Below are positions 9,660 to 12,128 of a stretch of DNA of 29,467 nt, one piece after another. This DNA is from Clostridia bacterium. Its GTDB lineage: Bacteria > Bacillota > Clostridia > Oscillospirales > Butyricicoccaceae. The stretch covers positions 1 through 29,467 of the forward strand of contig JAFZPW010000120.1 in assembly GCA_017552495.1 (NCBI GenBank), read 5' to 3'. The notes under the pieces were generated by a model. That model was not told the origin of the DNA and did no database searches. It saw nothing but the letters and a program-made list of their open reading frames with translations. The translations under genes and the position numbers were made by a program. Every line of letters begins with the position of its first letter. Position 1 is the first letter of the stretch.

Positions 9660-10424
9660 TCAATGCTTCTGCTGCTTCATCCAGATCTTCATAATCAGTT
9701 TATGGGGCAGCAGCTTGGTGGCTACCACCTGCAGCTTGTTGCTCAAACCGGGGACGCATACATCCCTGCCCTTTTCGCTGTCGCGCATGGCAACCCGCAC
9801 CACCTCTTCGGCGGTATAAATTTTATTGTAATTGGTGACCGCCGTTTTCGAGGTCTCCCACGCATGGTCGAAAAATTCGGTCTGCACCCAATAGGGGCAG
9901 AAGGCCATCACCTTAATGTTGCGGGGCCGCAGCTCCACATTGAGACTGCGGGCATAACTCAAAACAAAAGCCTTGGTGGCGCCGTAGATGCTCATATAGG
10001 GCACCGGTTGAAAGGCCGACATGGAATCCACCTGCACGATGCGCCCCCCCGCTTTCATGTAGGGCAGGGTCAGCGTGGTCACGCGCACCATGGATTTGCA
10101 GTTAAGCTCGATCATGTTCACGCTGTCCTCCAGCGGGATCTCGTCATAGCGGCCGAACTTGCCGAAACCGCTGGCGTTCACCAGAAACGCCACATCGGGC
10201 TTGTGCCGCTCCAGCAGGGCGCTGTATTCCCCATAGCTTTCCTCCCGCGTCAGATCCAGCGGCAAAAGACGCAGCGGGACGCGCACCTCTGTTTGCAGCG
10301 CCTCCAGCCGCTCTTTTCTGCGGGCGATGACCCAAATCTCGTCGATCCCACCCCGTTGGGCGGTCATTTTCACAAATTCTCTCCCCATGCCGGAGGAGGC
10401 GCCGGAGATAACGGCAACGCGCAT
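9660..10424 (-). CDS. Short-chain dehydrogenase/reductase (SDR)
   Basis: SGASSGMG Rossmann motif, LVNASGFG, catalytic YGATK; RBS GGAGTGG before ATG 10424. Confidence 0.93.
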   Translation of the reverse strand: MRVAVISGASSGMGREFVKMTAQRGGIDEIWVIARRKERLEALQTEVRVPLRLLPLDLTREESYGEYSALLERHKPDVAFLVNASGFGKFGRYDEIPLEDSVNMIELNCKSMVRVTTLTLPYMKAGGRIVQVDSMSAFQPVPYMSIYGATKAFVLSYARSLNVELRPRNIKVMAFCPYWVQTEFFDHAWETSKTAVTNYNKIYTAEEVVRVAMRDSEKGRDVCVPGLSNKLQVVATKLLPHKLIMKIWMKQQKH

Positions 10425-10596
10425 AAGACTTCCACTCCTGTCAACGATTTTAGTTTGATTTATTGTATCATACCCCGTGTTGGATTTCCAATCCTTTTTA
10501 CCCATTTTCCCCGTCGCGGCGTGTTTCTGTGGATTTTTCTGTGGGTTTCGTGGATAATGTCTAAGAAACACAAAAAAATTTTGTTGAATTTTTTGT

Positions 10597-10663
10597 CGAA
10601 CAACCGTTTGCATTTGTCGAACAAATGTGCTATACTGTTTTCAAATAAACGAACACTTGTTTG
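10597..10663 (+). promoter_or_regulatory. Sigma-A promoter overlapped by three putative LexA (SOS) boxes
   Basis: -35 TTGCAT 10608-10613, 17 bp spacer, TGcTATACT (-10 at 10631-10636); boxes CGAACAACCGTTTG 10597-10610, CGAACAAATGTGCT 10618-10631, CGAACACTTGTTTG 10650-10663 compared with the Firmicute GAAC-N4-GTTY motif. Confidence 0.8.
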
Positions 10664-10682
10664 TATTTTGGAGGCGATCACC

Positions 10683-10928
10683 ATGAAGAAACACGGTCAA
10701 CGGATGGAGCTTTTGGGCGGCTTGGGCCTGCTGTGGCTGGCCATGGCCTCCGACGGCGGCATCATCGGCGTCCTGCCCACTGTTTTGCTGGGGCTTCTGT
10801 GCGTCTCTGTTCTGCTTTTGGGCGATCTGTTTACCCGTCCCCGCAAAAGGCGCGCCCGCCGCGCTTCCCCGGCGGCCCGGCCCGTTCCCGCCAACGTGGT
10901 GCCCTTCTCCGCCTCCCGCGCCGCCTGA
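10683..10928 (+). CDS. Small hypothetical membrane protein, 81 aa (putatively SOS-regulated)
   Basis: GGAGG RBS, ATG 10683; two hydrophobic segments then a basic tail (RPRKRRARR); has its own promoter and terminator. Confidence 0.8.
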   Translation: MKKHGQRMELLGGLGLLWLAMASDGGIIGVLPTVLLGLLCVSVLLLGDLFTRPRKRRARRASPAARPVPANVVPFSASRAA

Positions 10929-10942
10929 TCCCGGAAAAATCA

Positions 10943-10980
10943 CTCGCCTGCCTCGTTCGGCAGGCGGGTTTTGCTTTTTG
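10943..10980 (+). terminator. Rho-independent terminator of the small membrane protein gene
   Basis: CTCGCCTGCC / GGCAGGCGGG stem followed by TTTTGCTTTTT. Confidence 0.8.
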
Positions 10981-10988
10981 TTCCGGTT

Positions 10989-12128
10989 TTACGCTCCCGC
11001 CAGCTTTTTCAGTTCCCGCAGGAGGCATTCGCACTTTTTCGTGCCAATATAACCCCGGTCGCCGCATAGGGCACAGTCGGGTTTGTCCGCGAGATAGTCG
11101 GCGGGCTTGCCCAGTTTTTCCAGGATCTCTCGCTGAAGGGCCAGACTTTCCCGGTATTTGGCCTCCAGCGCCGCACGGGCTTCGCCGGTGCTCCGGGCCA
11201 TTCGCGAGGCGCACAGACGCATGGCGCTCTCGTTTTCGGCAAAGGCTTTGGATTCCCGCCGCAGCTCCTCCCGCCGCTTTTCCAGCGTCACGGCCCGTTT
11301 TTGCCGTTTTTCCTGCATTTTTTGCAGGATCACCGTTTCGGCGCTTTCGGGCTTTTTTCCGGCCTGCGGCGTCTTCGGCCCCTCCCGCATTTCCCGCTCG
11401 GCCTGTTCCGGCGCAGTGATACCTTTCTCGTGCCATGCGGTAACGATCTTGTCCAGATAGGGCCAGCTCATGCGTCCCGCGCCCAGTAGCGTCCGGTCAT
11501 GGGCCAACTTCAGAAGAGCGTCGGAAACGCCCATCTTGTCCCATTTGTCGATGTACTTCTGTTCGCTCTCGCCAGGCTGCCTGTCCCGCATACCGAAAAG
11601 CGCCAGCACCTTGGCGCCCCGCCCGCGGCGCTCCCGCTGCCGCTGGAGATACGCCTCGGCGTCGGCATACCCGGTCAGCCCCATGTCATGCCAGCGATAG
11701 GCTACCCGCTCCACCTCTCGGGCGCTGAGCCGGCCCCGCTGTGCGCAATCGCTGATGAGCAGGGTCAGCACCTCGGGCTTCATTTGCAGACTCTCGTGAA
11801 CGTTGAGCAAAGTCTCCATTTCCCGGCGGTTGAGGATGCGCCCGATGGACGATTCAAAATAGCCGCACAGCCCGGCAAACGCCGGGTCGCCCTCCCGGGC
11901 GCGCACTAGCTCGCCCGCGCTGTAAGCCGACTCCTGCCGCGGGGGCGGCGCAAGCTCCCGGGCCGTCAGCCCGTAGACCACCGTCAGTTCGGCCGCCTTA
12001 TGCACCTGCTCCGGCGCGAGTTCCAGCACCCGTGCCGCCTCCGCCTCGGTGCAACCGCCGTCCTTCGAAGCGGCATAGGCGTAAAGCAGCGCCGCCAGCG
12101 GGTCGCGCAGTCTCGCCAGCGTCGCCAT
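10989..12128 (-). CDS. DnaD/DnaB-family primosomal protein (two DnaB_2-like domains) with C-terminal coiled coil and Zn-binding motif
   Basis: FESSIGRILNRREMETL...EVERVAYRWHDMGL and YIDKW...SWPYLDKIVTAWHEKGITAPEQAE are DnaD-type repeats; the C-terminus has CALCGDRGYIGTKKCEC. Confidence 0.82.
   Translation of the reverse strand: MATLARLRDPLAALLYAYAASKDGGCTEAEAARVLELAPEQVHKAAELTVVYGLTARELAPPPRQESAYSAGELVRAREGDPAFAGLCGYFESSIGRILNRREMETLLNVHESLQMKPEVLTLLISDCAQRGRLSAREVERVAYRWHDMGLTGYADAEAYLQRQRERRGRGAKVLALFGMRDRQPGESEQKYIDKWDKMGVSDALLKLAHDRTLLGAGRMSWPYLDKIVTAWHEKGITAPEQAEREMREGPKTPQAGKKPESAETVILQKMQEKRQKRAVTLEKRREELRRESKAFAENESAMRLCASRMARSTGEARAALEAKYRESLALQREILEKLGKPADYLADKPDCALCGDRGYIGTKKCECLLRELKKLAGA

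Follow-up and report, generated by a model that had tools for sequence, protein, structure and literature searches.

What is switched on from a promoter that lies under three LexA-type boxes, and what would its small membrane product do in a cell with damaged DNA? The question is raised by positions 10597–10980 of the window, a 29,467-nt stretch of contig JAFZPW010000120.1 (assembly GCA_017552495.1) from a Clostridia bacterium of the Butyricicoccaceae, where a gene for an 81-residue micro-protein stands behind such a promoter. Known SOS division inhibitors are small (29–165 aa), mutually non-homologous membrane proteins (PMC13689564), and the damage-induced inhibitors found outside the SulA lineage are likewise small, mutually unrelated membrane proteins (PMC13689564, PMC6051672). 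Because bacterial damage-checkpoint proteins are small and unrelated between lineages, they must be found lineage by lineage. In Clostridium difficile a lexA mutant is filamentous (PMC4689574), and neither that study nor the literature that we searched names a clostridial SOS division inhibitor.

Here we report that the micro-protein gene is, to judge from its promoter, very probably repressed by LexA and induced by DNA damage. The protein most probably works like an SOS-induced membrane effector. By analogy with known systems we favour a role as the SOS-induced division inhibitor, or damage checkpoint, of its genus, to which we assign a probability of about 0.45; on the same analogy it would be the best candidate in this lineage for a brake on division during repair. 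It thereby offers a clean candidate for an SOS division inhibitor in Clostridia, the class in which the filamentation of the C. difficile lexA mutant is documented.

Three boxes on one promoter

Read directly, the locus contains every part that a preliminary description had listed, namely the promoter, three boxes, a Shine–Dalgarno sequence, the 81-aa open reading frame (ORF) and a terminator, and with its own promoter and terminator it forms a stand-alone transcription unit, as had been proposed. A promoter scan places the −35 hexamer TTGCAT at 10608–10613 (+ strand) and, after a 17-nt spacer, the extended −10 element TGcTATACT at 10628–10636 (+ strand), where GTGCTATA is invariant in 15 orthologous promoters. 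The boxes occupy positions from which a bound repressor would block RNA polymerase. Operator 1, CGAACAACCGTTTG (CGAAC-AACC-GTTTG; 10597–10610), overlaps the −35; operator 2, CGAACAAATGTGCT (CGAAC-AAAT-GTGCT; 10618–10631), overlaps the extended −10; and operator 3, CGAACACTTGTTTG (CGAAC-ACTT-GTTTG; 10650–10663), falls inside the predicted transcript, whose start is placed near 10643, and covers about +7 to +20. The boxes follow the Firmicutes-type LexA palindrome CGAAC-N4-GTTCG: the first and third fit GAAC-N4-GTTY, and the second departs from it by one mismatch. Counted one by one, such motifs are not rare within the window. The looser pattern CGAACN4GT has four sites in these 29 kb, three of them within 66 bp at this promoter, and by our own arithmetic the chance expectation for three such matches in 66 bp is roughly 1e-6 to 1e-5. 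It is the cluster of boxes, not the individual motif, that is the non-random feature; with a GC content of about 42%, the intergenic region around it is AT-rich for a genome of 58% GC.

The boxes, which the preliminary description had seen in one genome only, keep their half-sites and positions in 15 of 15 orthologous loci. In the upstream alignment of these loci the columns CGAACA/GTTTGC, CGAACA/GTGCTATA and AAC/GTT.G are invariant, and the four spacer bases of the boxes and all of the flanks drift. Boxes 1 and 2 are 21 bp apart in all 15 loci; box 3, which is also present in all 15, follows box 2 at 31–33 bp (32 bp centre-to-centre in the window). These distances amount to about two and three helical turns, which would set three LexA dimers on one face of the DNA, an arrangement that would in turn favour cooperative repression. 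Within box 3 the better half-site changes side between species (CGAAC..GTTTG in some, CAAAC/AAAAC..GTTCG in others), as is expected because the operator is palindromic. When 151 genomes of the family were searched with the tandem-box pattern, this locus was matched in all 14 genomes of the genus that carry the gene and was the sole match in 13 of them, the genome labelled G011 having a second match that looks unrelated. Beyond this locus the 151 genomes hold a single convincing match, at a recA promoter. (Throughout, G000 denotes the genome of the window and other G-numbers its relatives; L-numbers denote loci and C-numbers contigs.)

The boxes might instead have served the short-chain dehydrogenase (SDR) gene that diverges from the locus (coding sequence 9660–10424, − strand), an assignment that we rejected: the SDR gene's own promoter-like site lies about 100 bp away, and the boxes are kept where the SDR gene is absent (L011 and L036). 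That promoter-like site, TTGGAA-18-TACAAT with a TG at 10462–10491 (− strand), does not overlap the boxes. Upstream of box 1, by about 10–25 nt, there is also an AT-rich element, AAATTTTGT[TCG][GC]AA (10570–10590), which shows partial conservation across the 15 orthologous promoters and which in L008 is a full extra CGAAC half-site. It may act as an UP element or represent a fourth, degenerate LexA half-site.

Downstream of the boxes, the Shine–Dalgarno sequence GGAGG (10670–10674, + strand; GGAGG or GGGG in the orthologues) stands 8 nt before the start codon of the micro-protein (P0001), whose coding sequence runs from the ATG at 10683 to the TGA at 10926–10928 (10683–10928, + strand). An intrinsic terminator follows at 10942–10979, consisting of a hairpin (10942–10969) with an 11-bp GC-rich stem, eight of its pairs being GC, and then a T-run. 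It scores as a terminator on both strands and so probably ends the convergent DnaD-like gene as well.

The LexA operator of this lineage

Whether the boxes are LexA operators depends on what LexA binds in this lineage. G000 is a 1.47-Mb metagenome-assembled genome (MAG) that is 71% complete, and its relatives are MAGs from rumen and gut. Its LexA has the sequence of a canonical self-cleaving repressor, with the Ala-Gly site, the GESM serine and the VKRL lysine, and the lexA promoter carries CAAACAAATGTTTG together with the same TGTGCTATACT −10 element as the micro-protein promoter. The lexA promoters of five of five near-complete relatives have CAAACAAATGTTTG too, and in two of them (G010 and G011) the −10 also carries a CGAAC-N4-GTGCTATA box; the two-box design of the micro-protein promoter is that of these two lexA promoters. 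No recA was found in the 71%-complete G000. In four of the five near-complete relatives the recA promoter has CGAACAAATGTTGC fused to its −35, and a recA promoter in a sister genus has both boxes, including the CGAAC-N4-GTGCTATA design. A radical-SAM gene, putatively for DNA modification or repair, whose protein begins MEKLTILADAAKYDAAC, has CGAACA[AG]ATGTTCT directly after its −10 in G000 (C117:2457–2470) and in G002 (C46:10447, L057). The uvrB gene of G015 (L108, G015:C35:46250–49261) carries the LexA box CGAACAACTGTTC in its promoter spacer. As no strict box was seen at uvrB in G002, the content of the SOS regulon seems to vary within the genus. The preliminary description had cited GAAC-N4-GTTY as the Firmicute LexA operator, and the same motif does recur at lexA, at the radical-SAM gene and at recA of the relatives; in this comparison the motif of the micro-protein promoter is not different from that of LexA.

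A position matrix trained on the lexA, recA and radical-SAM sites only, and so independent of the boxes under study, ranks box 2 fourth, box 1 ninth and box 3 sixteenth among the 1.47 million positions of G000. The same scan returned, at rank 20, a weak LexA-like box (AAAAC-ATTC-GTTTT, C156:1282–1297) close to the −35 element of an ORF (from 1354) for a soluble, zinc-ribbon-like protein of 81 aa; this could be a further SOS gene or a chance match. In the complete 1.9-Mb relative G002 the pattern CGAACN4GTT occurs 18 times, two of these at the promoter of the micro-protein. Intergenic sites are confined to this promoter (the two sites just mentioned), recA and the radical-SAM gene, so that the SOS regulon, as defined by the strict pattern, looks very small; once lexA with its variant box is counted, G002 has four operator-bearing promoters. 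Among them the micro-protein gene bears the heaviest operator load, and across the strict sites of G002 and the matrix scan of G000 its product is the sole small membrane protein found under LexA boxes.

We consider it very improbable that some regulator distinct from LexA binds the boxes, or that they have no function, either of which would put the gene outside the DNA-damage response. The half-sites of lexA's own box, which read CAAAC and not CGAAC, would speak for such a regulator. Against it, the same motif and the same placement of a box on the promoter are seen at lexA, recA, the radical-SAM gene and the uvrB of G015; box 3 interconverts CGAAC and CAAAC half-sites among the orthologues; and in the 15-locus footprint selection falls exactly on the half-sites.

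A two-helix micro-protein and its paralogue

Orthologues of the micro-protein occur in 14 of the 16 genomes of the genus, at 55–98% identity, and none was found in the 44 other genera sampled; weak matches in G017 and G020 are spurious, as they contain stop codons and lie inside other genes. Over codons 1–54 the median pairwise dN/dS is 0.30, a value that marks the ORF as one under purifying selection. The GC content at third codon positions is about 0.8. The gene order rarA–SDR–micro-protein gene–dnaD-like–glmU-like is conserved across most of the genus; the neighbours differ in some relatives (L015, L016 and L034). In the window the DnaB_2/DnaD-like gene lies downstream and is convergent, and rarA lies two genes upstream, so that the flanking by replication-related genes noted before is borne out. 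On these sequence comparisons, we take the micro-protein gene to be a real, core, monocistronic gene of the genus and not prophage cargo.

When 1.84 billion representatives were searched exhaustively with a profile, 10 proteins only were recovered, of which eight are relatives of 75–87 aa, one is a 150-aa protein that matches with its C-terminal half only and one, of 584 aa, is spurious. Together with a paralogue clade the family comprises 39 clusters at 90% identity, all unnamed; the source annotation of the relatives is "hypothetical protein", and the ESM Atlas holds unnamed clusters only. Three nominal hits were discarded, these being Pfam BatA (13.6 bits against a cut-off of 25.9, which is noise), NCBIfam PspM (13.8 bits against a cut-off of 80, in one homologue) and a viral glycoprotein in the PDB (E = 0.16). 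Neither PHROGs nor PADLOC returned a match to the peptide, no relative was found in 2.9 million viral contigs and 50,697 phage records, and Rfam had no match over 10300–11100. The peptide thus has no credible match in Pfam, NCBIfam, PHROGs, PADLOC or the PDB, in keeping with the earlier impression that it belongs to no known family.

These searches bear on a first alternative, a holin-like or prophage-derived lysis protein of the class II holin type under SOS control. Size, two hydrophobic helices, a charged C-terminal tail and SOS-type regulation fit superficially. Such a protein is hard to reconcile with a core chromosomal gene in conserved housekeeping synteny that has no endolysin or phage genes beside it, and with the lack of any PHROG match or of relatives among the viral contigs and phage records. 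We regard the holin reading as largely refuted and scarcely credible.

Modelled by AlphaFold2 with the family alignment, the protein is a helical hairpin (helices 3–24 and 30–51) with a disordered tail, at a mean pLDDT of 64. Its N terminus is basic (K2, K3 and R7), the turn between the helices is SDGG, and the tail of about 30 residues, which ends in -RAA, contains nine basic and zero acidic residues (+9). The positive-inside rule predicts a cytoplasmic location for each terminus, and in the model only the SDGG turn would be exposed outside, leaving no extracellular domain. Pfam finds no LysM domain in the peptide, as the preliminary description had said, nor any other domain. Among the orthologues G12, L16 and A20 are invariant and, being spaced i, i+4 and i+8, line one face of helix 1; S23, D24, G26 and G47 are invariant too. 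The tail is poorly conserved except for FTRPR and its end: 15 of 15 orthologues terminate in -Ala-Ala, and the preceding 25 residues vary freely. In view of ssrA-like C-terminal signals, the terminal Ala-Ala could, by analogy, serve as a degron that an AAA+ protease recognises in the cytoplasm.

A small hydrophobic protein under LexA control could also be an SOS membrane toxin like TisB or DinQ. In that case the hairpin would dissipate the proton-motive force and lower ATP, causing growth arrest or persistence in place of a specific block to septation. Unusually tight repression by three operators agrees with this, as does the lack of an extracellular domain able to act on peptidoglycan synthesis. 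TisB and DinQ have about 27–29 aa and one helix, so that a protein of 81 aa with two helices is far larger. Type I toxins depend on an antisense RNA and on a structured leader; here the promoter scan predicted no antisense promoter inside or after the gene, and the fold of the leader of about 40 nt does not differ from that of shuffled sequences (z = 0.53). To our knowledge, LexA-controlled type I toxins have so far been proteobacterial. The conserved small and polar residues that share a face of the helix also suggest specific packing and not a generic pore. On this balance a toxin is unlikely; the model for it, TisB, is an SOS-induced membrane toxin that brings about dormancy (PMC11575346).

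The genus has a paralogue of 72–94 aa with the same two-helix layout and an xAMxSDGG turn, ending in -KAS or -KAG. In G000 its coding sequence is C71:3945–4226 (with its operator C71:3884–4226, equal to L072:1501–1843), and in relatives it is found at L022:1465–1728 (−), L023:1474–1758 (+) and L069:1095–1379 (+). Its promoter has no LexA box and carries in its place the palindrome TCCGTTTTA[AT]CGGA. Exact matches to this palindrome occur in three genomes, G000, G002 and G012, at exactly three sites per genome, and overlap promoter regions; in G000 they are at C71:3884–3897, C134:4636–4649 and C138:5373–5386. One site belongs to the locus of the paralogue and its MATE gene, another stands ahead of a 39-aa ORF and a further MATE gene, and the third is near a gene for an XRE-family regulator; the palindrome looks like the operator of some repressor with a small regulon. 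The paralogue's neighbours in the relatives are a MATE (MatE/MurJ-like) gene that diverges from it and, on its other side, a second SEDS (RodA-like) gene that is convergent with it (L069:1453–2616 in one relative). Its adjacency to the SEDS gene is only suggestive, because the two genes are convergent and not co-transcribed.

Location and paralogue together raise a further alternative, in which the micro-protein is an SOS-induced membrane adaptor that tethers or regulates a repair or replication-restart factor, or modulates a transporter or an elongation SEDS protein, with no arrest of division. Its position between rarA and the DnaB_2/DnaD-like gene is conserved across the genus, the polybasic disordered tail on the cytoplasmic side could bind nucleic acid or acidic partners, and the paralogue sits between a MATE gene and the second SEDS gene under a non-LexA operator that is common to other MATE loci. 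These associations are weakened by the layout of the locus, in which the neighbours are separate convergent or divergent units and the micro-protein gene has its own promoter and terminator, by the different neighbours in L015, L016 and L034, and by a tail with little conservation outside FTRPR and -AA. We know of no precedent for such an adaptor and find it doubtful.

A possible brake on division, compared with known systems

The genomic setting of lexA favours the division-inhibitor reading. In G000 lexA is on contig C187, separate from the contig of the window, in line with the earlier remark that no lexA adjoins the gene. In the genus (L001, which is G000 C187:2283–4881, and L045) recG comes next on the lexA strand, the S10-Clostridia leader and the rpsJ operon precede lexA on the opposite strand, and no small membrane gene stands beside it. 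The slot in which such an inhibitor is usually encoded is therefore empty. With nothing YneA- or SosA-like by lexA, and with the micro-protein as the sole small membrane protein under LexA boxes, a checkpoint is the leading hypothesis.

We propose that in undamaged cells LexA dimers on the three operators would occlude the −35 and −10 elements together with the start of the transcribed region and hold a strong sigma-A promoter very tightly shut. After DNA damage, RecA-stimulated self-cleavage of LexA would open the promoter, and the 81-residue protein would be made and would insert into the membrane, its helical hairpin leaving both termini on the cytoplasmic side. There it may bind a late component of the divisome in the plane of the membrane, pausing synthesis of the septal wall until repair is done. 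By precedent our guess for that component is the SEDS polymerase FtsW, encoded in the mraY–ftsW–murG cluster (orthologue at L067:1477–2706): the transmembrane (TM) helix of YneA docks on TM7 of FtsW, and SidA, SosA and ChiZ have been modelled likewise (PMC13396833). The cytoplasmic tail and its -AA end could then let an AAA+ protease of the ClpXP or FtsH type clear the protein. Target and degron are inferred only.

Several points weigh against a division inhibitor. The protein has no extracytoplasmic domain, unlike YneA, SosA and ChiZ, and YneA cannot inhibit without its own (PMC13396833). Nor does the gene adjoin lexA, as most Gram-positive examples do (PMC13689564). Repression by three operators fits any toxic product, including a depolarising toxin. 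No copy was found in G015, a larger, 96%-complete genome of the same genus, and a scan of that genome for LexA boxes yielded the boxed uvrB and no obvious replacement micro-protein. The paralogue lacks LexA boxes, so the molecular activity of the family is not intrinsically tied to DNA damage. The family is, as far as the searches above reach, essentially restricted to one uncultured rumen genus and cannot be a general clostridial solution. Of the earlier interpretation, the regulatory half is strongly supported, with the LexA motif and boxes conserved in all 15 loci, and the functional half is drawn from analogy; in topology the predicted protein, a two-helix hairpin lacking an extracellular domain, departs from YneA, SosA and ChiZ. 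Should the micro-protein nevertheless inhibit division, a SEDS or other divisome target could be blocked purely within the membrane, which would be relevant to inhibitor design.

Among the closest known systems is SidA of Caulobacter crescentus, an SOS-induced protein that binds FtsW. Both are LexA-controlled, essentially all-membrane, lineage-restricted orphans, and since neither has an extracytoplasmic effector domain, any action would have to take place in the plane of the membrane. The two share no sequence similarity. SidA has 29 aa and one helix, whereas the micro-protein has 81 aa, two helices and a 30-residue basic cytoplasmic tail, comes from a Gram-positive-type lineage of Clostridia and is a candidate FtsW binder by analogy only. 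Caulobacter also has a second small inhibitor, DidA, which is SOS-independent and under another regulator (PMC13689564), and the SidA/DidA pair is paralleled here by the LexA-boxed gene and its non-LexA paralogue. One could extend the parallel to a two-input checkpoint, in which the LexA-controlled copy and the paralogue would each bind a SEDS polymerase within the plane of the membrane, inhibit it without an extracellular domain and be cleared from the cytoplasmic side through a degron in the C-terminal tail (-AA in the SOS copy). We rate this scheme, taken whole, as decidedly improbable; if true, SEDS polymerases would here be inhibited and reset in a way that differs from YneA, SosA and ChiZ.

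YneA (Bacillus and Listeria) and ChiZ (Mycobacterium), which combine a TM helix with LysM, resemble the micro-protein in being small membrane proteins under multi-box LexA control, and their targeting element is the TM helix that docks on TM7 of FtsW (PMC13396833). The micro-protein differs in having a two-helix hairpin with neither LysM nor any other extracellular domain and in not being encoded beside lexA; as YneA needs LysM to inhibit, the mechanism here cannot match in detail. Whereas YneA is cleared by extracellular proteases (PMC6051672), clearance of the micro-protein, if any, would necessarily be cytoplasmic. SosA of Staphylococcus aureus (77 aa) is similar in size, in LexA repression and in being an orphan membrane protein. 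It has a single N-terminal TM helix and an extracellular C-terminal part needed for activity (PMC13396833), and its gene is divergent from lexA, whereas both termini of the micro-protein are predicted to be cytoplasmic, its gene is not by lexA, and the two sequences are not similar.

TisB and DinQ of Escherichia coli share with the micro-protein a small size, hydrophobicity, a place in the membrane and very strong repression by LexA. They have a third of its length and only one helix, and they come with antisense small RNAs and structured leaders; none of these features is found here. Class II holins share two TM helices, a charged C terminus and, if the topology inferred here is right, an N-in/C-in arrangement; they differ in that no phage lysis cassette or endolysin lies beside the micro-protein gene. 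As YneA, SosA, SidA, TisB and the holins were each compared by a defining feature that the micro-protein lacks, we file it under none of them: its protein family is new and architecturally distinct, and its regulatory logic is classical.

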